Assembly (NCBI GenBank): GCA_045593185.1
Contig: JAZNWD010000016.1
Location: forward strand, 21,781 to 85,780
Origin: Elusimicrobiaceae bacterium
Lineage (GTDB): Bacteria > Elusimicrobiota > Elusimicrobia > Elusimicrobiales > Elusimicrobiaceae
Direction: 5' to 3'
DNA length: 64,000 nucleotides
Positions 11,687 through 58,063 of the stretch are shown here, piece by piece. The translations under genes and the position numbers were made by a program. Under the pieces are notes generated by a model. That model did no database searches, had not been told where the DNA came from, and saw only the letters and a list, made by a program, of their open reading frames with translations. The first letter of the stretch is position 1. Each line of letters opens with the position of its first letter.

Positions 11687-12178
11687 TTATAGCTTATATA
11701 CATTTTCCTGTCCGGTCACCAACTTTGCTCCTAATGCTTTGCATAATTTCTCCCCGCTGTCATTGTATCCTAGGCAATAACGGCCATTAGGTTTTTTACC
11801 TAATCCTCCCTCGTAATCAGGACCGGTGAAGTGAAGGGAATAATCAAAGGCAGAGTTCCGACGTACAGCATAGGGACTACTTTCCCCTCCATCATCCGTA
11901 TAATACGCAAACGTATCACTATAACAGTAATCATCTTCACAGTCCAAAGAGCCCGAAAACTCAATGTCGGAATTCCACCAACCGCAGCCATCCCCATCAC
12001 TTAAACGTTGCATTTCGCATAACAAACCGGCCTGTTGAAAATTTTTCAACAACATCAACGCTTCTGCCGAACGGCTCTTTTCCACAGCTAACTGATATTG
12101 CGGCAACGCCACCGCCGCCAAAATACCAATGATTAAGACAACTACTAATAGTTCTATTAATGTGAATCCGTTTTTCAT
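11687..12178 (-). CDS. Type IV pilin-like protein (prepilin methylation motif)
   Basis: MKNG|[24 protein letters not shown]; Cys pairs in globular domain. Confidence 0.9.
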
Positions 12179-18728: not shown

Positions 18729-19519
18729 TGCATCCTGTTTTACTGCACATTGGTAATTTTGAACTGGCCAGCTACGGGTTGATGACCGCACTGGGATATA
18801 TTGCCGCAACCAGTTATTTGCTCCCCCGCTTAAAAACGTGCGGGATTAAGGGACTCACCAAAGATATTTTTTGGAATTTAATTTTTATCACATTTGTGGG
18901 GGCAATTGTAGGCGGCAAACTCCTTTTTATTATGGTTTCCTGGTCACAATTAGGCCCCACGTTCGCTGAAAAAATATCTTACATTGTGCACAATTTACGC
19001 TATGGGTTTGTGTTCTTTGGCGGGATGTTGGTGGCAGTAGGTGCGCTCATAGCATATATCCGCTATAAAAATTTACCTCTTTTAAAAACAGCGGACTTTT
19101 TGATAGTCGGCCTGCCTTTAGGGCATGCCCTGGGACGCATTGGTTGTTTTTTGGCAGGATGCTGCTACGGCAAACCGACCACGTTGCCGTGGGGCGTTAC
19201 GTTTACCGATCCGCACGCTTTGGTGGCGCCGGAACTAATCGGCGTGCCGCTACACCCTACCCAACTCTACGAGTCCGCCCTCAACTTTGCCTTATTTTTG
19301 CTGCTACATTATGCTTCTAAAAAACCGCACAAAGACGGTAAAATTTTAGTGGAATATGTATGGTGCTATGCGCTGTTGCGATTTGTAGTGGAATTTTTCC
19401 GTGGCGATTTTAGAGGCGGATTTTTGCTGGGGTTATCGCCCTCGCAAGTGATTTCACTGCTCATAGCCGGTGCAGCATTTTATGTGTGGGCACGTTATTT
19501 AAGGGGCACGCATGAGTAA
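18728..19519 (+). CDS. lgt: Prolipoprotein diacylglyceryl transferase
   Basis: MHP start, GRIGCFLAGCCYG, HPTQLYE, RFVVEFFR. Confidence 0.95.
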   Translation: MHPVLLHIGNFELASYGLMTALGYIAATSYLLPRLKTCGIKGLTKDIFWNLIFITFVGAIVGGKLLFIMVSWSQLGPTFAEKISYIVHNLRYGFVFFGGMLVAVGALIAYIRYKNLPLLKTADFLIVGLPLGHALGRIGCFLAGCCYGKPTTLPWGVTFTDPHALVAPELIGVPLHPTQLYESALNFALFLLLHYASKKPHKDGKILVEYVWCYALLRFVVEFFRGDFRGGFLLGLSPSQVISLLIAGAAFYVWARYLRGTHE

Positions 19520-20420
19520 TAAACAAACTTTTGTTTTTGACGGTTACACGCGGCGGCTGGATGTATTTGCGGCCGATGCGCTGCCCGATTTATCGCGCGC
19601 GCTGGTGCAAAAAATGATTAAAGAGGGCCGCATTACCGTCAACGGGAAAACGGTTAAACCTTCCTGGCCGTTAACACGCGGCGAAACGGTAGAAATCACG
19701 CTCCCGCAGGCACACACGCAAACCCCGCTCAAAGATTTGCTTATTCACGACGGTAAAGATTTTTTTGTGGTGATTAAGCCCGCCGGGCTTTTGGTGCATC
19801 CGCAAAGCCCTATTTGGGAGGAACACCCCGAAACAGTTTTTTCTTCGGATGAAACGCTGGTATCTATTATTTTGGCTAACCCGCCTAAAGGGTTTGACAA
19901 AAGTACTCCACGCGCCGGGCTGGTGCACCGCTTGGACCGCGAAACCAGCGGCGTAATGGTGGTAGCCAAAACGCCCGAGTTTCAAGCCGAAATGGTAGCC
20001 CTGTTTGCCAACCGCGAGGTACACAAAACCTATCACTCCATTGCCTGCGGCGAAGTGCCCGATGACAAGGGTACTATTGACGTGCCCATCGGACGCGTGG
20101 CGGGCGGCAAGATAAAAGCGTCTGAAATCGGCCGGGAGGCCGTTACTGATTACAAAGTTTTAGAACGCAAGAACGGGTTTACGTATATTGAGCTTTACCC
20201 GCGCACCGGGCGTACCAATCAGCTGCGCGTGCACTTAAATTGGCTGGGATACCCCGTACTGGGCGACTGGCTTTATAAGGGGGCCACGGCCGACCGCTTG
20301 ATGCTCCACGCCCGCAAAATTGAATTTAAACACCCCTTAACGGGCAAGAAATTGCAATTTGAAGCCCCCGTGCCGGACGACTTTTTAGCCGCGTGGAAAC
20401 GAGTGACAAAAGGAAAATAA
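19512..20420 (+). CDS. RluA/RluD family pseudouridine synthase with S4 domain
   Basis: RLD S4 start, KPAGLLVHP, HRLDRETSG. Confidence 0.9.
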   Translation: MSNKQTFVFDGYTRRLDVFAADALPDLSRALVQKMIKEGRITVNGKTVKPSWPLTRGETVEITLPQAHTQTPLKDLLIHDGKDFFVVIKPAGLLVHPQSPIWEEHPETVFSSDETLVSIILANPPKGFDKSTPRAGLVHRLDRETSGVMVVAKTPEFQAEMVALFANREVHKTYHSIACGEVPDDKGTIDVPIGRVAGGKIKASEIGREAVTDYKVLERKNGFTYIELYPRTGRTNQLRVHLNWLGYPVLGDWLYKGATADRLMLHARKIEFKHPLTGKKLQFEAPVPDDFLAAWKRVTKGK

Positions 20421-20446: not shown

Positions 20447-21553
20447 TTATAAGTCTTTTTGGTACACGCGGTAGCGTTTGCTAAAGTGGCCGCCACATTC
20501 TTCAATGCCGCGCAACATACCCACGTTATCTTCCAGCACCCAGGAAAGCTCAGCCCAATCCCACACGGCCACACCATACGTGACGATATGCTTAATCAAA
20601 ATTAAATCAATACCGTGTTTGCGAAACTCGGGCAAGACGCCCAACATAATTAAGCGCGAATCTTTAATCTTTTTCCACGCCAGCACGGCCTTTAAAAGCC
20701 GCCACGGGTTGTATAAAGACCCCCGCAAAATTTTGAGCACATGGTTCATATTGGGGATGCAAATATAAAACCCCGCCGGCACGCCGTTTTCTTCCAGCAC
20801 GCAGGTCCCTTCCACACGCACAATGGATTTAAGCTCGTTTACAATGTCGGCCATTTCTTGCTTATCCAGCGGCACAAAACCCCAATTTTCCGCCCAGGCC
20901 TTGTTGTAAATCTCGCGGATAATCTCGGCCTCTTGGTCCAAATTTTTGAGGTTCAACCGGCGTAGCGTAATGCCTTCTTTTTTCTCACACCGGGAACATA
21001 TCTTTAAAAACCGCTCGGAGAATTTATCATCGCGGCTGCGCTCATACGCCAACAAATCTTTGGCTTTGGTAAAGCCGGCCTTCTCAATTAAATCTGCGTA
21101 GTAGGGGTAGTTATAGGGCATCATGATAGACGGCATGGAGTTAAAACCGTCCACCAATAGCCCATACGTGTGATTACTGGAGGGATTGGCCGGGCCGCGC
21201 ACCGCTGCAACGCCCTGTGTGCGTAAATAATCTTGCGCGGCTTTAAAAAGTGCGTTGGAAACTTCCTCATCGTTTACACAATCAAAAAAACCAAAAAAAC
21301 CGATATTTTCGTGGCGGTAATCGTTATATTTCCGGTTAACAAGCGCACAAATACGGCCCACGGGTTTGCCGTCTTGGTACGCCATAAATAATTTGCGCAC
21401 GGCGTGTTGCCAAAAGGGGTTATCCAGCCGCAAGAGTTTGCGGGTTTCTTCTTTTAAATCGCCCACCCAATAAGGGTCTTGTTTGTACAATTCAAATGAA
21501 AAATTGATAAAGCTGTTTAATTCTTTTTGGGTAACTTCGCGAATTTCTACCAT
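20447..21553 (-). CDS. GNAT-family protein resembling bacterial ceramide synthase (YghO-like)
   Basis: F...LY...PYW, GRICA, FFGFF, YNYPYY, ELSWVLEDN motifs; adjacent to spt. Confidence 0.7.
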   Translation of the reverse strand: MVEIREVTQKELNSFINFSFELYKQDPYWVGDLKEETRKLLRLDNPFWQHAVRKLFMAYQDGKPVGRICALVNRKYNDYRHENIGFFGFFDCVNDEEVSNALFKAAQDYLRTQGVAAVRGPANPSSNHTYGLLVDGFNSMPSIMMPYNYPYYADLIEKAGFTKAKDLLAYERSRDDKFSERFLKICSRCEKKEGITLRRLNLKNLDQEAEIIREIYNKAWAENWGFVPLDKQEMADIVNELKSIVRVEGTCVLEENGVPAGFYICIPNMNHVLKILRGSLYNPWRLLKAVLAWKKIKDSRLIMLGVLPEFRKHGIDLILIKHIVTYGVAVWDWAELSWVLEDNVGMLRGIEECGGHFSKRYRVYQKDL

Positions 21554-21573
21554 AAATCCCCCTAAAAAAAGAA

Positions 21574-21591
21574 CCCCGCGCCAAGGCGGGG
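21574..21591 (-). terminator. Hairpin plus T-tract between spt and the GNAT gene
   Basis: CCCCGC-6-GCGGGG followed on the minus strand by TTCTTTTTTT, directly before the GNAT RBS. Confidence 0.6.
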
Positions 21592-21600
21592 CTATTTGAA

Positions 21601-22791
21601 TTATTTGATAATTCCCACCGCACGGCCCGCCTGTGCAAAACTATCAATAATTTTTTGCACATGTTCTTCTGTATGCGTGGCCATCAGCGTCAAGCGAATG
21701 AGCGCGCGGCCGGGCGGCACCGCCGGGCTGACCACCGGGTTGGCAAAGATGCCCATCTCGTGCAAGGCGCGCCACATTCTAAAGCAGTTTTCGTTGCTGC
21801 CTACGTGCACGGGCAAGATAGGCGTAGTGCTTGTACCTAAATCGTAGCCCAAGTCTTCAAGGCCTTTTTTAAGAAGTGCCGTCAAGCGGAACAAATTATC
21901 GCGCCGGGAAGTATCTTTAGAAATCAAATCTACAGCTTTGGAAATGGAAGCAATGCACGAAGGCGGCATAGAGGCCGAGAAGATTTGGCTGCGTGCGTTG
22001 TGGCGCAAATAGTGGATGATTTCTTCGTCGCCCACTACAAATCCACCCACCGTGGCAAACGTTTTAGAACATGTTCCTACAATTAAATCCACTTCGCCGT
22101 TTTCCAGGCCGAAATATTCGCACGTACCGCGCCCGGTTTTGCCGATAATACCCGTAGCGTGGGCATCGTCCACAATAATGCGCGCGCCGTATTTCTTGCC
22201 GATTTTGACCACTTCCGGCAGCGGGCAGATATCCCCTTCCATGCTAAACACACCGTCCACAATGATAAGCTTGCCGGCATCGGCGGGGAGTTTAGCCATT
22301 ACGCGTTCCAAATCAGCCATGTCATTGTGTTTAAAGCGGGCCATTTCCGCCCCGGAAAGGCGCACCCCGTCCAAAATACTGGCGTGATCTAATTTGTCCA
22401 CAATAGCGTAGTCGCCTTTTCTCAGTAACGAGGAAACAACCCCCAAATTCATTTGATACCCGGTTGCAAACAACAACCCGGCTTGTTTACGTTTAAACGC
22501 GGCAATTTTCTTTTCCAACTCGTCGGCTAATTTGGTATTGCCGTTTAAAAGGCGGCTGCCGGCCACCCCGGTACCGTATTTTTTTACGGCATCCAACGCG
22601 GCCTGTTTCATTTCCGGGTCGTTGGCTAACCCCAAATAGTTGTTGGAACCTGCCATGATGTAGGTTTTCCCTTCTAACACAACCTCGGGCCCTTGGGCAG
22701 ATTCAATGGGCTGGAAATAGCCGTAAACACCCATTTCCATGGCCAGTTTAGCATCTTTGTAATTGCGGCACTTTTCAAAAATATCAGACAT
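21601..22791 (-). CDS. spt: Serine palmitoyltransferase-like alpha-oxoamine synthase (PLP class II)
   Basis: GSNNYLGL, GTGVAGSRLLNG, DKLDHASI, DGVFSMEGDI, GTCSKT (PLP Lys), YLRHNARSQIFSAS; matches my recollection of Bacteroides SPT better than BioF or Kbl. Confidence 0.8.
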   Translation of the reverse strand: MSDIFEKCRNYKDAKLAMEMGVYGYFQPIESAQGPEVVLEGKTYIMAGSNNYLGLANDPEMKQAALDAVKKYGTGVAGSRLLNGNTKLADELEKKIAAFKRKQAGLLFATGYQMNLGVVSSLLRKGDYAIVDKLDHASILDGVRLSGAEMARFKHNDMADLERVMAKLPADAGKLIIVDGVFSMEGDICPLPEVVKIGKKYGARIIVDDAHATGIIGKTGRGTCEYFGLENGEVDLIVGTCSKTFATVGGFVVGDEEIIHYLRHNARSQIFSASMPPSCIASISKAVDLISKDTSRRDNLFRLTALLKKGLEDLGYDLGTSTTPILPVHVGSNENCFRMWRALHEMGIFANPVVSPAVPPGRALIRLTLMATHTEEHVQKIIDSFAQAGRAVGIIK

Positions 22792-25738: not shown

Positions 25739-26611
25739 TTATGCTGTAATTTGCCAGCAATTACACTGCCCCCCTTCGCTACATCCGCCTTCATACCCAC
25801 TTGGGCAAGAAGGACAATCCGAATTAGACGAGCATGGACTCCCTTCATTGCCACCGGCACTTTGTCCGGAACATCCTCCTTCGTATTGATTGCAATCGTT
25901 AGGATCCGGATATACAACTCCCCCTGCCCCCCAACAATAGCAAGTGTTCTCTATACACATTGCAGAGGTGGCGACAAACCCCAAATCAGAGTAAGAACAA
26001 GAACAATCTGCAACCGTTGAACATGTTTGAGGTGGAACTGGAGTTGGTTCCGGCTCAGGTTCCGGTTCCGGCTCTAAATCCGGATACAAACTGGCTAGAT
26101 TAGGGTCAGTTTGCCATCCTTGCTTTTCTAAAGAAGCACAGATACGTTCTCCCACGCTATCATACGGATAGCATGCAAGAGTCCAATTGTTGTTGGCAAC
26201 GGAAGATTTTACAGCACCAAGATCATAAGGCCAATCCTCCCCGCACGAACTTTCCGTATTTGCACAGCGAGCCAACCATATTTCACACACTCCTTCTCCG
26301 CAATAGGCACTGTAACTAAAAAATTTATCGTAGCAGCTCCAATCGTTACACGCATCAAATGAATGATTTAAATTTATATTGAAAGATTCATCATGAGGCT
26401 CCGCAGCCAAATCAACATATCCAACACTGGGATATCCTTTTTCCAATACGTAGACGTCCAATGCTTTTTGCGTATCTGCAATTAAAGATAACTTAGGAGC
26501 CAAGCGGCTTTTTTCTACTGCAAACCGATATTGTGGCAAGGCCACCGCCGCCAAAATACCAATGATTAGTACTACTACCAATAGCTCTATGAGCGTGAAT
26601 CCTCTATTCAT
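25739..26611 (-). CDS. Type IV pilin-like protein with EP linker and Cys-rich C-terminal extension
   Basis: MNRG|FTLIELL...; (EP)n-TPVPP linker; two CSxxxDC...CxCW modules. Confidence 0.85.
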   Translation of the reverse strand: MNRGFTLIELLVVVLIIGILAAVALPQYRFAVEKSRLAPKLSLIADTQKALDVYVLEKGYPSVGYVDLAAEPHDESFNINLNHSFDACNDWSCYDKFFSYSAYCGEGVCEIWLARCANTESSCGEDWPYDLGAVKSSVANNNWTLACYPYDSVGERICASLEKQGWQTDPNLASLYPDLEPEPEPEPEPTPVPPQTCSTVADCSCSYSDLGFVATSAMCIENTCYCWGAGGVVYPDPNDCNQYEGGCSGQSAGGNEGSPCSSNSDCPSCPSGYEGGCSEGGQCNCWQITA

Positions 26612-42447: not shown

Positions 42448-43458
42448 TTAATCTACATTCGCCTTCTTTGGAATATATTTAATGGCATCGTGAAGCGTTT
42501 TCGGAGTAAGATGGGCGTAGATTTCAGTCATTTTGATGCTGCTATGACCTAATAATTTACTTACCCTGTACAAATCCACCCCGTTCTGCACAAGGTGACT
42601 CGCAAAGGTATGACGCAATTTGTGCAAGAAACTGGCAACCTTAGCTTTCTTGGCGATTTTTCTGTAAAAGGCCGTTAGGAAATATTGACTTCCACGAGAA
42701 TGCCCCACATTGACAACGAACTCGTTTTTAGCGGACTTTTTAGCTTTTTTTAGGGCTTCCCTTAATTCTTTGCTCATTGGGACAAAACGGTGGTTTTCCG
42801 TTTTGGCAGGAGCAATATAGAGTTGTCTATTTCTAAAATCGACGTCTTGCCAACGCAGTTGCACCATTTCTCCTCTCCGCAATCCAGCATCAACCCCCAA
42901 AAGAACAACTAATTTCCAAGCCGGAGAAGGGCAAACTGCAAGTATTTTGTTTATTTCTTCTACAGAATGGAATACAATTCGTCCTCTAGGAGTTTTAATT
43001 TTAGTTATCCCCGACCAATCTTGCTTAGGAATAAATTCCCATCTTTCAGCATGGTGCATGATTGCTTTAAGGCATTGAATCAGGCGGTTAATATTGTGCT
43101 TCCCCAAATTTTTATGAAGCATATACTCTTTAACTTTTTGTAGAGTGGTTGGTGTTATTTCATGTAAAAACCTAGGACAATCTACTTCTTCCAAGCATCT
43201 AATGGCAATATGTGTCCTTTTAATTGTATTCTTGGCACGTTCTAAAGCCATAAATTGAAACAATCTGTCTTTAAAATGTTCCCAGGTCATTTCTACAACT
43301 ATCTTTTCTTTTAAAGCATTTCTCCTCTCAATTAATTTGGAATACTTTAATTGGGCTATCCTTAATTTAGAGGTTTGGAGAGATATTCTGTGTCGATGAC
43401 CTAATGCGTCGTGATAGTCTGCATAGTAAATATTCCCATGTAATTTTTTTATTGCCAT
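42448..43458 (-). CDS. Tyrosine recombinase / phage-type integrase
   Basis: GLRRGE (R), HKLRHTFAS (HxxR), LLGHSSIKMTEIYAH (H, Y); short N-terminal arm-binding-like region; start moved to ATG 43458 after GGAGG. Confidence 0.92.
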   Translation of the reverse strand: MAIKKLHGNIYYADYHDALGHRHRISLQTSKLRIAQLKYSKLIERRNALKEKIVVEMTWEHFKDRLFQFMALERAKNTIKRTHIAIRCLEEVDCPRFLHEITPTTLQKVKEYMLHKNLGKHNINRLIQCLKAIMHHAERWEFIPKQDWSGITKIKTPRGRIVFHSVEEINKILAVCPSPAWKLVVLLGVDAGLRRGEMVQLRWQDVDFRNRQLYIAPAKTENHRFVPMSKELREALKKAKKSAKNEFVVNVGHSRGSQYFLTAFYRKIAKKAKVASFLHKLRHTFASHLVQNGVDLYRVSKLLGHSSIKMTEIYAHLTPKTLHDAIKYIPKKANVD

Positions 43459-43546
43459 ACTATTTCCTCCCTTATTGCGCAAACTTGGCTATTTGCGTTG
43501 TATGGTGTATATTGTAGGGAATATTTGTGTTTAATTTAGCAATTCG

Positions 43547-49054: not shown

Positions 49055-50404
49055 ATGGATGAGCGTATTCATATTTTGCCCCATTCGCCCGGCGTGTATG
49101 TCATGCGCGGCAAGGACGGCACCATTCTCTACATCGGCAAAGCGAAAAACTTGTCGGACCGCGTGAAACAGTATTTCCAAGAGTCCAACTTGTATTCGCG
49201 CGGGTGGAAGTTGCCCAGTTTGCTGCCGCTGATTGCCAAGATAGACTACGTCGCCTGCTCGAGTGAGCGCGACGCCCTGGTGCTGGAAGAAAAGCTCATC
49301 AAAGAATATCAGCCGTTTTTTAACTCCATGGGTAAAGACGGCAAAACCTACCCCTATTTAAAACTATCCTTAAGCGAGGATTTCCCCCGCCTGCAACTGG
49401 TACGCAAAAGTGCCGCCGATGCCGGTAAAAATTCCGCGGACGCGTACTACGGGCCGTACCCCAAATCGTACATTGTAAAAAGCTTGATGCGTTTTTTATG
49501 GCGCAGCCAGTACGCACCGCTGCGCTTATGCAAGTGGAAGTTTTCACGTGAAAACAAGCTTGCCGCGCAAAAAATCAACACCTGCATTTATTATCACACC
49601 GGCCAGTGCCCGGCCCCGTGCGCGGGTAAAATTTCGTATGAAGACTACCAAAAAAATGCTCGGCGCATGGCTGATTTTTTAGACGGCAATTTTGGCAATT
49701 TGCAAAGCACGCTGGAAAAGCTGATGAAAACCCACTCCCAGCGTTTGGAATATGAACAGGCCGCCGTATACCGTAATTTTTTACACGCGCTTAGTCACAT
49801 GAAAGAGCGCGTGCTGGTGGGCCGCTTTAAGGACGACTACATCACCACTGCCCTTGAAAATACCGACAAGCTAAAACGCCTGGCCGAAGTGATTGGCCTC
49901 AAAAAATTGCCCACGCACATTGAAGCGTTTGATAACTCGCACCTCTTCGGGCGCGAAGCCGTGGGCTGTATGGTTTGCTTTGTAAACGGCGAGAAAAACC
50001 ACGAGCACTACCGCCGTTTTAAAATCCGCTCTAAGCTGCCCGAAAAAGGCGGCAGCGATTTTGCCATGATGGAAGAAAGTGTCTACCGCCGTCTGCGTCA
50101 ATTAAAGCGCGACCCAGCCCAAACCCCCGATCTCATTTTATTAGACGGTGGGAAAAGCCAAATCCACGCGGCCCTTAACGCCTTTGAACGCGCGGATATG
50201 TATATCCCGTTTATTGCATTGGCCGAAACGCACGAGGGCATCTACCTGCCCGGCGCCAAGGAAAGCATCAAGCTGCCTATCGGGGACCCGGCTTTGAATT
50301 TGCTCATGGAAATACGCGATGAAGTGCACCGCTTTGCCATTACCTATCATCGTAAACTGCGCGATAAAGCCCAGTTGCAAGAGACTCACAAACCTACAGT
50401 TTAA
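49055..50404 (+). CDS. uvrC: Excinuclease ABC subunit C, lacking the C-terminal HhH domain
   Basis: PGVY.M....ILYIGKAK.L..RV.QYF (GIY-YIG), IEAFDNSH, PDLILLDGG..Q, RDEVHRFAI; start moved to ATG 49055. Confidence 0.9.
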   Translation: MDERIHILPHSPGVYVMRGKDGTILYIGKAKNLSDRVKQYFQESNLYSRGWKLPSLLPLIAKIDYVACSSERDALVLEEKLIKEYQPFFNSMGKDGKTYPYLKLSLSEDFPRLQLVRKSAADAGKNSADAYYGPYPKSYIVKSLMRFLWRSQYAPLRLCKWKFSRENKLAAQKINTCIYYHTGQCPAPCAGKISYEDYQKNARRMADFLDGNFGNLQSTLEKLMKTHSQRLEYEQAAVYRNFLHALSHMKERVLVGRFKDDYITTALENTDKLKRLAEVIGLKKLPTHIEAFDNSHLFGREAVGCMVCFVNGEKNHEHYRRFKIRSKLPEKGGSDFAMMEESVYRRLRQLKRDPAQTPDLILLDGGKSQIHAALNAFERADMYIPFIALAETHEGIYLPGAKESIKLPIGDPALNLLMEIRDEVHRFAITYHRKLRDKAQLQETHKPTV

Positions 50405-51485
50405 GCCATTTAAATTCCAGGAAGACTGCTACCGAGAAGAGAAGCACCGGGCCCCAACCGGCCAAATAGGGGTTTAAGTACCCATTTTGGCCCATGGAGT
50501 TTACCATAGACATAATCCACCAAAACGCAAACGCAATTACTAAGGAGGCAATGATATTTAAAATTTTACTTTTGCGCCGCGTGCTAATGGCAAAGGGCAT
50601 CCCCAGCAGGCACATAATCACCGTGACAAACGGAGTGGCCAGTTTGGATTGGCGGACTGTTTCGGCCGCATAATGAGAAAGGCCGCTACGCCCGTAAAAA
50701 TTGATTTTAGTGCTTAAGGCACGAATGCTTAACAATTTATCCTCTGCTTTGCTTACCGCCATCTTTTGCGGAGGAATTGTGAAAGGGGCCTCTTGGCTGA
50801 CGAAGGATTCCTCCGTCGTATCCATATCCGTCAAAAAAGTGCGCAAAATACCGTTTTTAAAAGTCCAGTGGTGGGTAGCTTGATCCCAACTCATCCCCTG
50901 AGCGATTACTTGCGTGGCGATGTTCCATTCGCCGTTTTGGTCGTTATAAGTATCGAGGGATACTTGATGCATGACCCCGTTTTTCAAATCCACCTGTTTG
51001 GCAAAAAGCATCTGCGTGGGAGAAATTTTAATGACTACATCATTTTCCGCATGGGGATTAAAATCGGCCGTCGGTTTAATGCGGGTATAATAAATAGCAT
51101 CTGCTTTGAGGTTGAGCCCGGGGACAATAAATTCTTGCACCCCCATAGTAGCCAAAACCACAAGCAAAACACACGCAATAATGGGCTTAAATAAATCTTT
51201 GGGAGCAAATCCGCCCGCCACGCAGGCGGTCCATTCGCCGTTGGAAACCATTTCGGAAATAACTGAAATAGCCCCCAGCAAACAGGCCACCGGAACGATA
51301 GTAGTCAGCCAATTAGGAAACGTGCACGCCGCATAAGCCAACAAATCCCACATAGTAGTGGTGCCGTTGGAAAGATTTTTTAGCTTTTCGAAAATATCCC
51401 CCAACACCACCAACGTAGTAAAAATACCCAGTGCAAAAAAGAACGGTCCCCAAAATTTGCGGGCTATATAATAGTATAGGCGCAT
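50394..51485 (-). CDS. lptG: LPS export ABC transporter permease LptG
   Basis: YjgP/YjgQ TM pattern; follows lptF with TAATG coupling. Confidence 0.8.
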   Translation of the reverse strand: MRLYYYIARKFWGPFFFALGIFTTLVVLGDIFEKLKNLSNGTTTMWDLLAYAACTFPNWLTTIVPVACLLGAISVISEMVSNGEWTACVAGGFAPKDLFKPIIACVLLVVLATMGVQEFIVPGLNLKADAIYYTRIKPTADFNPHAENDVVIKISPTQMLFAKQVDLKNGVMHQVSLDTYNDQNGEWNIATQVIAQGMSWDQATHHWTFKNGILRTFLTDMDTTEESFVSQEAPFTIPPQKMAVSKAEDKLLSIRALSTKINFYGRSGLSHYAAETVRQSKLATPFVTVIMCLLGMPFAISTRRKSKILNIIASLVIAFAFWWIMSMVNSMGQNGYLNPYLAGWGPVLLFSVAVFLEFKWLKL

Positions 51486-52579
51486 TAGATATTTAACCTC
51501 TTTTTCCACAAATAGTAGCCCGCCCCGATACCGACCAATACCGGCAACCAGGGGGCCGGGTAAGCCAATACACCGTATTTTTTACCCAGCGAAATCCCCA
51601 ACGTCATCAGCAAATAGAACGAGAAGATAATCACTACACTAAAGAGCATCCCCCACCCCTTGTTGGTCCGTTTCCCCAAGGAAAACCCAATCGGGCAACT
51701 GACGAACAATAAAATAAGCGGCGAAAGTGCCATTACGTTGCGCATGCTGATTTCGGTGCGATATTCGTTGCGGGTGGCTTTATCAAGTGGCATTTTTTTA
51801 AGGCGGCGCAACAATTTGGTAGTAGTCATTTCCCCTACACGAAGGCGCCGTTGCTGATTGCGAAAAAGCGATATATGCATCGTATAATCATCAAAATTGG
51901 CCGCGATGAAAGAGGAGGGGTCTTTCCCGTCCAAACGGCGCATTTGCCCGTCGTGCAGTTGCAAACCGATAGAGCTCTCGTTCAAAAGAACCCGGCCCCG
52001 CGCGGCATTGACGGTGGTGGACTGCGCCCCTGCATCATTTTTGCGCAGAAGCTGTATTTGTTTGGCCTCGCCTGTTTTGGGATCTAAATCCTCTACATAA
52101 AGTTCCCATTCGCCCAAGTTCAAAAAAGTTTTAGGTTCCAAATTCACTTTAGTAATTTTGCTGCGCGCTTCGGTACGCAAATTAAGCACTTTTTGATAGC
52201 TGTGCGGCGTAACCCAATTGCTCATAATGACCAAAATAACAGCCAATACAATCGCGCAACCCGCCAACGGGCGGACAATCTCTTTAAACGAAAATCCGGC
52301 AGCCCGCAAAGCAATCAGCTCCCCTTGTTCACTCATACCCGTCAATGTAAGTAAGATGGCAATTTGAAACGCCATCGGTGCGCTCAAACAAAAAACATCA
52401 GGCACCAGGTTTAATAAGGAGGAAGCCACCCACGTCCAGCTGGTTCCGTACGTCATGGCCATATTCATCACGCGGATGAAATGGTTCATAAAAATGACAA
52501 ACGTCAGTATCCCCAACACACCCGCAAATAACGTAAGCAAGCTCTTGGCAATATAACGCGTAAAAATACGTACGTGCAT
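51485..52579 (-). CDS. lptF: LPS export ABC transporter permease LptF
   Basis: RYIAK, ELIALRAAG.S, P.SY, IIFSFYLL motifs. Confidence 0.82.
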   Translation of the reverse strand: MHVRIFTRYIAKSLLTLFAGVLGILTFVIFMNHFIRVMNMAMTYGTSWTWVASSLLNLVPDVFCLSAPMAFQIAILLTLTGMSEQGELIALRAAGFSFKEIVRPLAGCAIVLAVILVIMSNWVTPHSYQKVLNLRTEARSKITKVNLEPKTFLNLGEWELYVEDLDPKTGEAKQIQLLRKNDAGAQSTTVNAARGRVLLNESSIGLQLHDGQMRRLDGKDPSSFIAANFDDYTMHISLFRNQQRRLRVGEMTTTKLLRRLKKMPLDKATRNEYRTEISMRNVMALSPLILLFVSCPIGFSLGKRTNKGWGMLFSVVIIFSFYLLMTLGISLGKKYGVLAYPAPWLPVLVGIGAGYYLWKKRLNI

Positions 52580-52693
52580 ATTTATATTTTAGCAAAATAG
52601 ACCTGTTAATGAACGGCCGTCCTCGGAAAGTTATTTTTTAGTGGCGCGCGTACGCGATAATTTATAAAATAAAGTGAGGGTTTATTGCTTCTT

Positions 52694-55600
52694 ATGAAAG
52701 CATTGCGGCTAGTACTGGCTTCTATACTATTGTTACAGGTATTTTTTGCTCCTATGGCGGGGGCAGAAACGTTGCCGTATAGTTTGGTAGATAAAAACCA
52801 ATACGAAATTTTTGAAGAAGAACAACAAGCCCAACTGGAAAAAGAACTCACACTGGAAGACCCCCCCGATGACGCCCAATTGCTTAAATATTCCACCGAT
52901 TTTTGGCGCCAGGCGGTAACCTCCGTGGAAGGGGCGTATACACTGGATAAAGAGCCCGAGCCCATCCCCGATTTAACCCTACTCAACCCCACCTTATCCC
53001 TGCCGCTTTACGGCACCAGCATTGCCTTGACCGGGCGCTACGTGCTGGGCGTGAAAATGGCAGCCAAAAAGTTCAAGTCCGACCCGAACAGCACCGTGGA
53101 AGACCGTAACGATCGCTCCGTGCAAATGGATCAACAGCTGCAATTAAAAATGCAGGGAAAAATTTTGGACCGCGTATTTGTGGATATTGATTACGACGAT
53201 CAACGCGAAGACGAAAAAACCATCTCCGTGGCTTACCGCGGCAAACCCGGCGAATTTGTACAACTGGCCGAATTTGGCGATATTACTCTATCCCTGCCGC
53301 AAACGGAGTTTATTTCGTACGAGAAACAACTCTTTGGGGCCAAAATGCACCTGCAACATAAAAATGCTAACCTGTATTTAATCGGTTCGCAAACCAAAGG
53401 TTCCAGCAAACAAAAGCAATTTATAGGAAGCAGCGTTTCGGAAATTGTTTCATTAGAAGATAAAAACTACATCCGCCGCACGTATTACGATTTAACATTC
53501 GGCGGGAACATAAAACCTACGAAAAAAGCCGACGGCAGCGAAACTTCTAACGTCAGCGGGGTGGCGTATAACGACTGGCGCAGCGCAATGGGTAATATAT
53601 CCCCAGGGACAGAAGAAATTTATTTGGATAACAATGCTACTTCTTATACATACGTGCCGGTAGACAAAACCGCTGAAGATGTATTAGGGGGCGGCGATTA
53701 TCCCGCCAAGTGGGAATTACTAACCCGCGGGATTGACTACACCATTGATTACACGCGCGGGATTATCCAATTCAAACGCAATATCAAGGCCGATGCGGCT
53801 ATCGCCGTGGATTATTTGGATACCCGCGGCCAACGCCTCAGCCAAACCATGGGAACGCCCGGGTATATCAAATTTATTAAAACGTCCAATGACCGCTCTG
53901 TAGCAACCAGCGCCGATGAAACCGCCAACAAAATGGAACTAAAAACTTACTACAACATTGGCGCACAAAAAATTACACCTGATAACGGAAAGGGGAATTT
54001 CATTCTGCAATTACAAGATGCCAACGGTCAGCCGCTAAACAATCCCTATTTTGTTTATCCCAATTACATGGAAATTGATTTCAACGCCGGTATCTTTAAT
54101 TTGGACTACCGCCTAGACGACGCAAGACTTTACGATCCCACGCCGGTTTCGTCGCGCAACTTAAAATTTAAAATCCAATACCAAAGCACCGTTAAAACGT
54201 ATTTTGTGGAAGCGGGCATTGTGGTCCAATCCGAAACGGTCAAGCTAAACGGACGCACCCTGGCACGCAATAACGACTACTATATTGACTATACCTCCGG
54301 CTTTATTACCTTCTACAAAGGCGACACTATTACCGAAAATTCCGTCATTGATATTACTTACGATACCACGGCCGGGGATAATTCCAACAACACCGTGGTC
54401 GGCGGACGGTTGGATTACAAACTCTTTGATAAAGTTGTCATGGGGACTACTGTCATTAAAGAAGGCGGCGAGAAGCCCAAATCCGTCCCGCAAGTGGGCG
54501 CATATTCCAAAGATTTGCTCGTATACGGGGCGGACATCAACGGAAAAGACATTAAACTGGCAGAGCCCTTATCGGTGGACTTTAGTGTGGAAGCCGCACG
54601 CAGCGTGAAAAAACAAAACCTCTACGGCTACGCGATGATCGACAGCATGAACGACGCCAGCACGCAAGTGGGCGGAAGTATGGTGTTCCGGGACTGGATT
54701 TTTGCTTCCAACCCCACCAAGCCCTCTACCTTCTTAAACACTTTACGCTGGGACACGCAGGATGTACCTTCTTTGCAAATTAACCCCAAAGCCGCTGCCA
54801 ATTACAATGATAAACAACAGGTGCTTGTGTTAAATTACGACTTTACCCAAGCGCGGGATTATGACCCGAACTTGGACGAAGTTTCTATCGTCTATCCGTT
54901 AAGTACCGTGGGGATTGATTTGTCGGATAAAACTTCGTTCCAAGTAACCATGCTGGGCGAAGAAGGCGGCCCGCAAGTAAACTTTACGTTTGGGGATATT
55001 TCGGAATATTCGGATAACAGTTCCGGCATGACCACCCAATGCAGTGCGGGCGGTTTGGTCCCCAAAACCGAAGACGTGTATTGCCGCAACAGTTTAGCAC
55101 CTAACGAAGATATCGGCTGGGAATTTATCAACCCGGACGGATCCTCACAGCGTTATAATCCCTTTACGCAAAACGTATATAACTATGAGACCCAACCCAA
55201 TGGCCGCATTGACACGCAGGACCTCAACGGAAACGGAAAATATGACCCGGAAAATATCCCCACCAACGGGAACTTCGGATTCGCCGGAACCCCTATTACC
55301 CCCGCCCCGGAACAACAAGAGCCCGGCCTCAACACCACCTGGCAAACCTATTCCGTACCGCTGGAAATTACAAATAAAGCCGAATGGACAGCTGTGCACC
55401 ATTTGCGTATTACCCTTAAAAAAGGAGCCAACCTAAAAGGGCAAATTAAAATTGCCGGGGTAGGGCTGTCCGGCACTGCGTGGAACCCCAATAACGTGCC
55501 TAACGTCAACAATTTTGCCATATCCGGCATTAATAACGTAGATAATGCTAACTACGACCCCATTTTTAGTTCCCCCGGCGACGGTCAACGCGTATTCAAC

Positions 55601-58063
55601 TACTTGTACGGTTCTATTGATAATTACCGCGAAAACAACCAAACTACCACCGCACAGGACCAAGCCCTGCGTATGAAGTTTAACACCGTCAGCACAGACT
55701 GCGACGGGGAGGCCTGCTATGCTAACCGCAACTTCCGCACGATGGACTTTAGCCAACACAAAGAAATGCGCTTCCTGCTGCATGGGGCCGGGGAAAGCGC
55801 GGTGGCCGAATCCGAATTTTTCTTAAAGGTGGGTACCGAAAAAAATTACGACAAAATTATTGTGCCGGTCAATTACAAGGGTTGGCGTTTGATTTCTGTT
55901 AAAATGATTGATACCAACGGGGACGGCATCACCGACACGTTCCAAAATGTGTCCGACCCCAGTTATGGGGTACGGGTGGATTCCACGCGCGCGCCCAACG
56001 GGCTGGTCAACTTCCGCGAAATCAGTTTGATTTTAGCCGGGGTAGAAAAGGCAACTACTAAAGATGAAGACGGCAACATTCAGGTAACCGGCGGGGGTAG
56101 CTCGGGCGAAGTGTGGTTAAACGTCATCCACTTGGCCGAAGCCATCACGCTAACCGGCGATGCTTACAAAGGCGATGTGGTGGTACGCTTGGACAATTGG
56201 GGTAGCGCCGGGGCCAAATACGTCCACAAAGATGCCGATTTTGAAACCCCGCTGGCCGTTTCCAAGCAGCAAGAAACCACCCAAGAAGAATATTTTGTCA
56301 AAATGACGCGCATTAAAGAATTCCCGATGGAAGCCAATTTGACGCGTTCTACCGTAACGACCCCCGTCATTTCGGACAGTACCAACTACAACACGGTGAG
56401 CATGTTGGATAAAGGCCGCGTACAAAGAGAATTGGCCGTAGTACGCGGGGATTTTATCAAAGAGAAATACCCCAATATCGGTTTGGAATATACGCAAGAC
56501 AGCACCACTTACGATTTAATGCAGCGCAAAGACGATACCCATACCTACGGGGCTACGCTTTCCCATACAGCCGGAGCATTTAAAAATATTCAAGCCGGGT
56601 ATCACTATACTACCTCGTCTATAGACTACGCGCGCGAACGGCAAATTTCCTCGGGCGGTACGTATTACAATACGGACGAAGAAACCCAAAAAGTGAATGC
56701 AAAAGTTACGTTCCAACCGTCTAACCGTTTCCACTTTACCCCCTCTTACAGTTTGAGCAAGAGCAAAGAAGACCGCACCCAATACACAGAACTGACCGAG
56801 GATTCCCGCAAATACCCCAAGGCCCTTACCCAAAATACCGGGTTTAACTCCACCTGGAAAATTACTAAATGGTTGGCCCCGTCGGTCAGCTATAACATCA
56901 ACACGCAAGAAAACAATAACTTAAGCAAACGGAAAAGCCACAACAATTTAACTTCGTTTGAAATTGGCGAAGTAAAAACCGTTACGCGCAGTTCGGACGG
57001 GGGCGTTACCCTTACGTTAAGCGGAAATGAATTACTCCCCAAGAGCAAACTGTTTAACACGTTGGTAGTTTCTTCAAGCTATCGTTTACAAGATGCCGAC
57101 ACGTGGGATGACGTAGACAGCGGCTTTGATTCCCGCAAAGAGTTGTGGATCCGCGGTTCGCTAAAAGATACAGGACGGTTTGGTTACCGCCGCAGCCTTA
57201 CTTTGCGCGATACCTTTATGTCCACCCAACGCTGGAGTCCGCTTTCTAAATACCAATTACGCGGCATGTTGGCCCCGCTGCAAACGCTTACGCTGATCAA
57301 TAATTTCTCCCGAACGCTGCAAAACAACGAACAGACCGGTACGAAATTTGATTCCACCAGTTCAACCCTTCCGGATGCCACGCTATCCATTTCCGACTGG
57401 GAAAAATTCTTCTTTGCGGGGCGATGGCTTAGCGATACAAACCTCAAATTGCGCTACAACAGAGTGAAGCAAACCAATATTGATGTGGACGAAAAAACAA
57501 CCACCCAATACGGCGGCGATTTGCGCTTTATGTTGTTGCGCCGTTTTGACACCGTGCTTAATTATACGCGCAACGAGTCCGACACGTGGGACCTGTACGC
57601 GGATTACAGCTTACAACGCACCAAAGATGATGATGTATCGGTGCAGACTTCGTTCTATATCAAATCGTTACGTATTACCCCTAAAGTGCTTTATAATAAG
57701 CATAACAAATGGCTGGTACGCGGCCTCATCAGCGAAAGCTCCACCCAGTGGACCCCCAGCTTAAATTTACGGTGGGACTTTAACTTGCCGCGCGGATTTA
57801 CATTGCCGTTTATCAACCGGGTTTATAAAACCACCAACCGCATTATTTGGAATACCACCTTCTCTTACACGGATAAAAAATCCCCTGTGGAAGTAAAAGA
57901 CAATTACCGTCTGTTTGATGCTACCACGTCGCTGGATTATGAACTTTCGCAAAACTTGCGCTTAACGCTTAGCGGCGGGCTGTCGGTAATGGATCACGCA
58001 TACGTGGAGAGCGAAGACTATACTGCTTACAATGTGGCTGCCAATGTTACCGTCCAATTTTAA
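52694..58063 (+). CDS. Very large outer-membrane protein, SprA/Sov-like
   Basis: About 1790 aa, signal peptide, GDITLSLP.TEF...QLFG, DYTIDY..G twice (SETVKLNG..L...DYYIDYTSG), long beta-strand-rich C-half ending VTVQF; ATG 52694 (TTG 52685 possible). Confidence 0.65.
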   Translation: MKALRLVLASILLLQVFFAPMAGAETLPYSLVDKNQYEIFEEEQQAQLEKELTLEDPPDDAQLLKYSTDFWRQAVTSVEGAYTLDKEPEPIPDLTLLNPTLSLPLYGTSIALTGRYVLGVKMAAKKFKSDPNSTVEDRNDRSVQMDQQLQLKMQGKILDRVFVDIDYDDQREDEKTISVAYRGKPGEFVQLAEFGDITLSLPQTEFISYEKQLFGAKMHLQHKNANLYLIGSQTKGSSKQKQFIGSSVSEIVSLEDKNYIRRTYYDLTFGGNIKPTKKADGSETSNVSGVAYNDWRSAMGNISPGTEEIYLDNNATSYTYVPVDKTAEDVLGGGDYPAKWELLTRGIDYTIDYTRGIIQFKRNIKADAAIAVDYLDTRGQRLSQTMGTPGYIKFIKTSNDRSVATSADETANKMELKTYYNIGAQKITPDNGKGNFILQLQDANGQPLNNPYFVYPNYMEIDFNAGIFNLDYRLDDARLYDPTPVSSRNLKFKIQYQSTVKTYFVEAGIVVQSETVKLNGRTLARNNDYYIDYTSGFITFYKGDTITENSVIDITYDTTAGDNSNNTVVGGRLDYKLFDKVVMGTTVIKEGGEKPKSVPQVGAYSKDLLVYGADINGKDIKLAEPLSVDFSVEAARSVKKQNLYGYAMIDSMNDASTQVGGSMVFRDWIFASNPTKPSTFLNTLRWDTQDVPSLQINPKAAANYNDKQQVLVLNYDFTQARDYDPNLDEVSIVYPLSTVGIDLSDKTSFQVTMLGEEGGPQVNFTFGDISEYSDNSSGMTTQCSAGGLVPKTEDVYCRNSLAPNEDIGWEFINPDGSSQRYNPFTQNVYNYETQPNGRIDTQDLNGNGKYDPENIPTNGNFGFAGTPITPAPEQQEPGLNTTWQTYSVPLEITNKAEWTAVHHLRITLKKGANLKGQIKIAGVGLSGTAWNPNNVPNVNNFAISGINNVDNANYDPIFSSPGDGQRVFNYLYGSIDNYRENNQTTTAQDQALRMKFNTVSTDCDGEACYANRNFRTMDFSQHKEMRFLLHGAGESAVAESEFFLKVGTEKNYDKIIVPVNYKGWRLISVKMIDTNGDGITDTFQNVSDPSYGVRVDSTRAPNGLVNFREISLILAGVEKATTKDEDGNIQVTGGGSSGEVWLNVIHLAEAITLTGDAYKGDVVVRLDNWGSAGAKYVHKDADFETPLAVSKQQETTQEEYFVKMTRIKEFPMEANLTRSTVTTPVISDSTNYNTVSMLDKGRVQRELAVVRGDFIKEKYPNIGLEYTQDSTTYDLMQRKDDTHTYGATLSHTAGAFKNIQAGYHYTTSSIDYARERQISSGGTYYNTDEETQKVNAKVTFQPSNRFHFTPSYSLSKSKEDRTQYTELTEDSRKYPKALTQNTGFNSTWKITKWLAPSVSYNINTQENNNLSKRKSHNNLTSFEIGEVKTVTRSSDGGVTLTLSGNELLPKSKLFNTLVVSSSYRLQDADTWDDVDSGFDSRKELWIRGSLKDTGRFGYRRSLTLRDTFMSTQRWSPLSKYQLRGMLAPLQTLTLINNFSRTLQNNEQTGTKFDSTSSTLPDATLSISDWEKFFFAGRWLSDTNLKLRYNRVKQTNIDVDEKTTTQYGGDLRFMLLRRFDTVLNYTRNESDTWDLYADYSLQRTKDDDVSVQTSFYIKSLRITPKVLYNKHNKWLVRGLISESSTQWTPSLNLRWDFNLPRGFTLPFINRVYKTTNRIIWNTTFSYTDKKSPVEVKDNYRLFDATTSLDYELSQNLRLTLSGGLSVMDHAYVESEDYTAYNVAANVTVQF

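Follow-up and report, generated by a model that had tools for sequence, protein, structure and literature searches.

Adjacent genes for a serine palmitoyltransferase-type synthase and a ceramide synthase homologue suggest sphingolipid synthesis in a gut Elusimicrobiaceae bacterium

The DNA considered here, a 64,000-nt stretch from a gut Elusimicrobiaceae bacterium (contig JAZNWD010000016.1; called the window below), contains a run of five head-to-tail open reading frames (ORFs) on its minus strand, with gaps or overlaps of no more than 47 bp: accB-like, accC, rfaE2, a gene for an alpha-oxoamine synthase (AOS), and one for a GNAT-fold acyltransferase (Table 1). These probably form an envelope-lipid operon whose last two genes, here called spt and bcerS, encode serine palmitoyltransferase (SPT, or Spt) and bacterial ceramide synthase (bCerS), which carry out the first and second steps of bacterial ceramide synthesis; a reductase encoded elsewhere would complete the ceramide. 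Because genes for these two enzymes are adjacent, the organism very probably makes a sphingolipid. A first-pass annotation of the same DNA, made from its letters alone, had proposed that the organism makes ceramides; of this, both genes, their families, and their linkage across phyla are supported by what follows, while the reductase and the lipid product are still inferred. The two ORFs, of 396 and 368 aa, are located as it had claimed.

The AOS has all three SPT-type signatures that the first-pass annotation had quoted: GSNNYLGL at residues 48-55, GTGVAGSRLLNG at 73-84, and YLRHNARSQIFSAS at 261-274. Its best NCBIfam score is to NF047600 (SerpalmtaseCFB, the Bacteroidota SPT model; 505 bits), followed by gly_Cac_T_rel (BioF/Kbl-related, 410 bits), bioF (395 bits), and Kbl (374 bits), although all four are below the models' own curated cutoffs. 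When PDB sequences were searched with phmmer, the Sphingobacterium multivorum SPT (SmSPT) scored 396 bits and Sphingomonas SPTs about 300; the best non-SPT match was a Thermus BioF/Kbl protein at 285 bits, with Kbl at 239, cysteate acyltransferases at 228-234, and E. coli BioF at 216. Identity to the crystallised SmSPT is 47% over 382 residues, and Asn50, His136, the Asp209/His212 pair, the pyridoxal phosphate (PLP)-binding Lys243, and Arg366 all align with residues of that enzyme; the roles assigned in this family are those of a Schiff-base Lys, a PLP-stacking His, an Asp/His pair, an Asn, and a carboxylate-binding Arg (PMC9304779).

A single active-site difference has been reported between enzymes of sulfonolipid and sphingolipid synthesis: Lys281 of SulA is Ala in Spt (PMC9304779). 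At this position the window AOS has Ala273, within the sequence IFSAS and 30 residues past Lys243; the discriminating site lies 30 residues past the PLP-lysine in SulA and SmSPT alike, and the FSAS of SmSPT has the same spacing.

A phylogeny, a check that the first-pass annotation had suggested, also places the AOS with SPT and not with BioF or Kbl. In a neighbor-joining (NJ) tree (77 sequences, 393 columns, no bootstrap, two non-SPT outgroups, cysteate acyltransferase (CFAT) left out), the window AOS and all its Elusimicrobiota orthologues fall within a clade containing SmSPT and AOS genes that adjoin bCerS or CerR homologues. The sister group consists of proteobacterial SPTs, from S. wittichii, S. 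parapaucimobilis, and E. coli, the last an AOS shown to form 3-oxo-sphinganine (PMC9386255). E. coli Kbl (33% identical to the window AOS) and BioF (31%) are outside the SPT clade. Having no bootstrap support and few outgroups, the tree is supporting evidence only. The usual partners of BioF and Kbl, BioB and threonine dehydrogenase (Tdh), are encoded neither in the window nor at ten Elusimicrobiota loci compared with it. Judged by its sequence, the AOS is thus of the Spt type, and not a BioF, a Kbl, or a cysteate acyltransferase.

The GNAT protein has a single Pfam match, to Acetyltransf_1, in its C-terminal half. It matches no NCBIfam model, and a PDB sequence search gave only spurious matches to designed repeat proteins. 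Its family, of proteins of about 370 aa, has 7,329 cluster representatives at E <= 0.001. In a tblastn search of plasmid records, it is 35% identical to E. coli YghO over its full length (E = 2e-62 to 2e-67), which justifies the first-pass label of YghO-like, and 36% identical, end to end, to an 'N-acetyltransferase' of Sphingomonas parapaucimobilis (E = 1e-70). The genes around both relatives are informative: E. coli yghO is accompanied by genes for a fatty acyl-AMP ligase, an NAD-dependent epimerase-family protein, an acyl carrier protein (ACP), and an AOS, with an extra lptG and lptF, and the Sphingomonas gene is downstream of those for an NAD(P)H-binding protein, an ACP, a 420-aa Spt, lptF, lptG, and a desaturase. 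These surroundings match those of the Caulobacter sphingolipid region (PMC11324152), and Caulobacter CC_1154, E. coli yghO (ECD_02850), and S. paucimobilis DRN02_007910 have been grouped as one orthologue set of acyl-CoA N-acyltransferases (PMC9386255). Deletion of the Bacteroides fragilis bCerS homologue, BF9343_4218, results in loss of ceramide and build-up of 3-ketosphinganine (PMC10865984; bioRxiv 10.1101/2023.05.23.541633).

The E. coli record in question (L003; strain PN43, NZ_MG591698.1), from a non-K-12 strain, has a complete, Caulobacter-like set beside yghO, made up of AasR, CerR, AcpR, and Spt together with a further copy of lptF and lptG. Such a cluster is known from E. coli BL21 (PMC9386255). 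The record is entered as a 354-kb 'plasmid' yet carries the chromosomal genes glcABCDEFG.

An AlphaFold2 model of the GNAT protein, built on 50 family members, has two GNAT domains in tandem (pLDDT 94.8, pTM 0.92). Its best Foldseek matches are the tandem GNATs MAB_4324, mycothiol synthase MshD, the clavulanate tandem GNAT (CBG), and a glucosamine N-acetyltransferase (E = 1e-15 to 1e-12, TM 0.55-0.68), so that its nearest solved structures are of amine-acylating enzymes. Two motifs conserved in the family, AWxxNWGFVP and ExSWxLEDN, are present as AWAENWGFVP (residues 219-228) and ELSWVLEDN (335-343). From these comparisons the protein is, by homology, a full-length member of the YghO family and a homologue of the bacterial ceramide synthase.

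The association of the two genes extends well beyond the window. A scan with the GNAT family alignment, using one genome per GTDB species and flanks of 10 kb, gave 80 loci, from Elusimicrobiota, Zixibacteria, Ignavibacteria, Gemmatimonadota, Bacteroidota, Nitrospirota, Planctomycetota, and other phyla. An Spt-like gene, whose product is 39-92% identical to the window Spt, is in the flanks of 68 of them, and in 61 it is directly upstream on the same strand; a CerR-like gene is found within the flanks of 48 (22-36% identity to E. coli or Sphingomonas CerR over about 320 residues). There are also natural fusions of an Spt-type AOS to the GNAT: P0286, of 780 aa and found in several independent assemblies, and P0378, a partial sequence of 648 aa. 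Directly before the P0286 gene comes one that is CerR-like (308 bits with the CerR profile described below), and after it a PAP2-family gene; this compact cluster of a CerR-like gene, an Spt::bCerS fusion, and PAP2 (L089, 5003-9258) may be a minimal phosphosphingolipid cluster of a metagenomic bacterium. Within the Elusimicrobiota, the complete order accB-accC-rfaE2-spt-bcerS is kept at all nine loci in the scan and in the cultured Elusimicrobium minutum Pei191, where it occupies 1279246-1283885 of CP001055.1 (7771-12410 in L001). The adjacency to accBC is limited to this phylum, while that of spt to the GNAT gene spans phyla. The two genes are functionally linked in many genomes besides that of the window.

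The pathway would begin with Spt as a soluble cytoplasmic PLP enzyme, predicted to form 3-ketodihydrosphingosine by condensing a long-chain acyl thioester and L-serine. By tblastn, the window has neither AcpR nor AasR, which proteobacterial SPTs need; this fits a Spt of the Bacteroidota type, and with no dedicated gene for either, the acyl donor is probably acyl-CoA or a housekeeping acyl-ACP. The YghO-type tandem-GNAT bCerS would then N-acylate 3-ketodihydrosphingosine to 3-oxo-dihydroceramide, and a reductase from elsewhere, either a CerR orthologue or an unrelated short-chain dehydrogenase/reductase (SDR), would finish the dihydroceramide, which would be expected to reach the outer membrane. 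The substrates, the existence of the reductase, and the final lipid are inferred, as is the order of steps, which is taken from work on Caulobacter and B. fragilis. That the operon joins spt and bcerS with genes for malonyl-CoA supply (accC) and for activation of the heptose of the lipopolysaccharide (LPS) core (rfaE2) suggests co-expression of envelope-lipid functions.

Several observations count against this proposal. There is no CerR-like gene in the window, by tblastn and by a CerR profile, as the first-pass annotation had stated, or, by the profile, in the 10-kb flanks of ten Elusimicrobiota loci, although one is present at 48 of the 71 GNAT loci from other phyla; the profile, made from 50 CerR-like neighbours, gave 288 and 431 bits with its positive controls, and its best match across the window and the ten loci had E = 0.4. 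The AOS is below the cutoff of every SPT equivalog model (NF047600, 505 against 640 bits; NF047599, 386 against 500; NF047603, 340 against 670), but these models are specific to lineages (Bacteroidota, beta-, and alpha-Proteobacteria), so that an AOS from another phylum would be expected to miss them. The GNAT is tied only indirectly, through its YghO and Sphingomonas orthologues, to the validated proteins BF9343_4218 and CCNA_01212; the latter is CC_1154, the bCerS reported by Stankeviciute et al. The flanks of 12 among the 80 YghO-family loci lack an Spt, and the family may therefore serve more than ceramide synthesis. Finally, a terminator-like hairpin stands between spt and bcerS.

This hairpin, located by a terminator scan, has 8 pairs, 6 of them G-C, followed by CTTTTTTT. 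It comes directly after the spt stop codon, with the bcerS ribosome-binding site and ATG beginning about 10 nt past the T-run. A hairpin and T-run are kept at the same junction at three other loci (L005, L006, and L001, which is E. minutum) with differing stem sequences: the window has GCCCCGC/GCGGGGT, for example, and E. minutum CCTCCCG/CGGGAGG. Its folding energy is no better than that of shuffled sequence (z = -0.35), so that the case for it rests on conservation. It looks like a conserved terminator or attenuator, which would set the ratio of spt to bcerS expression.

As to the reductase, ceramide-pathway genes are scattered in Bacteroidota genomes (PMC11334938), and a different 3-ketosphinganine reductase, BT_0972, has been proposed for that phylum (PMC10865984). 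The reductase for an Elusimicrobiota ceramide most likely lies elsewhere in the genome.

The lack of a nearby CerR could also be taken at face value: Elusimicrobiaceae might have a two-step pathway with no ceramide reductase, in which 3-oxo-dihydroceramide, and not ceramide, is the final product or receives the head group. Besides the difference in CerR occurrence between Elusimicrobiota and other phyla, this has in its favor that Caulobacter and B. fragilis cerR mutants accumulate oxidised ceramide (PMC11087976; bioRxiv 10.1101/2023.05.23.541633); since 3-oxo-dihydroceramide builds up in the deletion mutants, it is evidently a stable lipid. The CerR search, however, covered about 20 kb per genome, and given the scattered genes and the alternative reductase of the Bacteroidota, absence from the neighborhood is weak evidence of absence from the genome. 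We regard a pathway that stops after two steps as decidedly improbable. Somewhat less so, but still unlikely, is a CerR-less sphingolipid pathway, set in a fatty-acid/LPS-core operon, in which CerR has given way to an unrelated reductase or 3-oxo-dihydroceramide itself serves as the functional membrane lipid; if it exists, gut Elusimicrobiota would be a second host-associated source of sphingolipids beside the Bacteroidota, with a chemically distinct product.

Other alternatives concern the AOS itself. It might use alanine or glycine, giving bases of the 1-deoxy type, or cysteate, giving capnine, so that the product would be a sphingolipid-like N-acyl amino lipid and not a true ceramide. Substrates of AOS enzymes are hard to read from sequence (the cysteate selectivity of SulA is unexplained, according to its authors; PMC9304779), anaerobes have been reported to contain 1-deoxyceramides (PMC11334938), and the scores below the SPT equivalog cutoffs would be compatible with this. 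However, Ala273 is the Spt state of a site that is Lys in all known SulA enzymes (PMC9304779), SmSPT outscores the crystallised cysteate acyltransferases by about 160 bits, and the AOS nests with SmSPT in the tree; we think there is only a slight chance of a substrate other than serine. A role as BioF or Kbl, supplying biotin to the neighboring biotin-dependent carboxylase, with the GNAT unrelated, was prompted by the shared operon with the accB-like gene and accC, and finds some encouragement in the BioF-type names under which orthologues are entered in databases, and in the 395 bits the AOS scores with the bioF model. That score is nevertheless under the cutoff of this model (TIGR00858, 426.45 bits) and 110 bits under that with the SPT model; the E. 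coli BioF and Kbl, with their low identities, are outside the clade; neither BioB nor Tdh is encoded in the window or at the ten Elusimicrobiota loci; and its adjacency to accBC is peculiar to Elusimicrobiota, whereas that to the GNAT gene is cross-phylum, up to gene fusion. On scores, tree, gene context, and fusions this reading is rejected, and we give it almost no credence.

The Spt-bCerS pair of the window can be compared with several known systems. SmSPT (PDB 3A2B / 8GUH) resembles the window Spt in length, in catalytic residues, in having Ala at the SulA Lys281 site, and in having no dedicated ACP gene adjacent to its own; the window Spt differs in coming from another phylum, in belonging to an accBC-rfaE2 operon, and in its 505 bits against the 640-bit cutoff of NF047600. 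In Caulobacter crescentus (Spt, CC_1162; bCerS, CC_1154/CCNA_01212; CerR, CC_1164) the same two enzyme families are found, and Spt and bCerS would be expected to act in the same order and likewise in the cytoplasm. Unlike the Caulobacter genes, however, the window pair has no CerR, AcpR, AasR, or second LptF/LptG copy nearby; its Spt is of the Bacteroidota and not the alphaproteobacterial type; and spt and bcerS, directly adjacent here, are eight genes apart in Caulobacter.

Closer in arrangement are the CerR-Spt-bCerS clusters of other phyla (L013-L084; metagenome-assembled genomes (MAGs) of Nitrospirota, Zixibacteria, Ignavibacteria, Gemmatimonadota, and Bacteroidota) and the fusion P0286, in which spt is followed by bcerS on one strand. 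Their Spt proteins are 45-57% and their GNATs 38-43% identical to those of the window, and no other sequences from outside the phylum are closer in the tree. Most of these loci have a CerR-like epimerase-family gene directly beside the pair, whereas Elusimicrobiota have accB-accC-rfaE2 upstream. SulA of Alistipes finegoldii (PDB 7U7H), a cysteate acyl-ACP transferase that opens sulfonolipid synthesis and so also supplies an outer-membrane lipid with its long-chain base (PMC9304779), shares the AOS fold and catalytic residues with the window AOS but has Lys281 in place of Ala273, and the phmmer scores are 228-234 bits for such enzymes against 396 for the SPT.

The nearest homologues of both proteins are from Elusimicrobiaceae, Candidatus Avelusimicrobium, and uncultured Elusimicrobium (rumen MAGs), in keeping with the Elusimicrobiota-like source proposed in the first-pass annotation, and the sequencing runs containing the locus are bovine-gut and gut metagenomes. 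Searches for close homologues yielded just such Elusimicrobiota relatives, none informatively named, so that the link to bCerS comes from the plasmid-record search. Cultured E. minutum Pei191 has a 'putative 8-amino-7-oxononanoate synthase' that is 79% identical to the window AOS; this BioF name, in a type strain, is probably a misannotation. As a cultured isolate exists, the prediction of a sphingolipid is directly testable.

Sphingolipids from Bacteroidota pass into the metabolism of the host and modulate its immunity. According to one preprint, no gut phylum other than Bacteroidetes has SPT genes (bioRxiv 10.1101/632877); the Elusimicrobiota, including E. minutum Pei191, are a second gut-associated phylum with the Spt-bCerS pair. 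A literature search for Elusimicrobia, Elusimicrobiota, or Elusimicrobium together with sphingolipids returned microbiome-correlation papers only, none of which connects such genes or lipids with the phylum. Gene-based surveys have raised the number of bacterial phyla with potential sphingolipid producers from 9 to about 40 (PMC11334938), and Elusimicrobiota are not named in the text of a Black Sea paper covering 38 phyla. With the pathway already known, and predicted in about 40 phyla, the Elusimicrobiota pair extends the known picture and does not change it. The lack of a clustered CerR throughout the lineage does bear on which reductase acts, and when, in bacterial ceramide synthesis.

The remaining genes of the run, listed with the others in Table 1, agree with the first-pass annotation, which had placed accB-like, accC, and rfaE2 genes upstream on the same strand: the first product has a Biotin_lipoyl domain, and the other two score above the cutoffs of TIGR00514 and TIGR02199. 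The last of these, rfaE2 (HldE domain II), is the D-glycero-beta-D-manno-heptose-1-phosphate adenylyltransferase of LPS core heptose synthesis. The run ends at the GNAT gene, since the gene that follows it (19512-20420) has the opposite orientation.

Table 1. Features of the proposed envelope-lipid operon, in order of transcription (positions in the window).
Feature	Position	Strand	Basis and remarks
accB-like biotin/lipoyl-domain protein, 124 aa	24655-25029	-	First of run; Pfam Biotin_lipoyl, 42 bits
accC, biotin carboxylase subunit of acetyl-CoA carboxylase, 459 aa	23273-24652	-	TIGR00514, 645 bits (cutoff 626.5); NF006367, 657 bits
rfaE2 / HldE domain II, 157 aa	22816-23289	-	TIGR02199, 188.5 bits (cutoff 181.5)
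spt, serine-palmitoyltransferase-type AOS, 396 aa	21601-22791	-	Best model NF047600, 505 bits
GC-rich hairpin and U-run, terminator- or attenuator-like	21572-21593	-	Terminator scan; within the 47-bp spt-bcerS gap
bcerS, YghO-family tandem-GNAT N-acyltransferase, 368 aa	20447-21553	-	Full-length homology to E. coli YghO

The accB-like protein is not a typical biotin carboxyl carrier protein (BCCP): it scores 40.7 bits with the BCCP model TIGR00531 (cutoff 115), and its hairpin motif is non-canonical, with VETASKKHKI at the BCCP biotinylation site, where E. coli BCCP has VEAMKMMNQI. In an alignment with orthologues from five loci (L001, L005, L007, L009, and L012), the lysine of this motif is displaced by one residue in the Elusimicrobium group. 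Deeper-branching Elusimicrobiota have an additional ORF, about 554 aa long, that separates the accB-like gene from accC (L009, 5131-6795, with similar spacing in L008, L010-L012, and L033), which is absent from the window and from E. minutum; that it encodes a carboxyltransferase subunit is a guess from its position.

Elsewhere in the window, G+C content falls to 0.36-0.40 between 40001 and 46000, against 0.45-0.52 in the rest; this region has several ORFs, including one of 344 aa (42448-43482), and may be a horizontally acquired island. Two proteins encoded on the minus strand (25739-26611 and 11687-12178) have a type IV pilin-like N-terminus, and the larger also contains consecutive Glu-Pro repeats (EPEPEPEPEPEP) and is rich in Cys in its C-terminal part. 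On the plus strand, a 1,792-aa ORF (52685-58063) with a signal-peptide-like start adjoins lptF/lptG-like genes (50394-52579).

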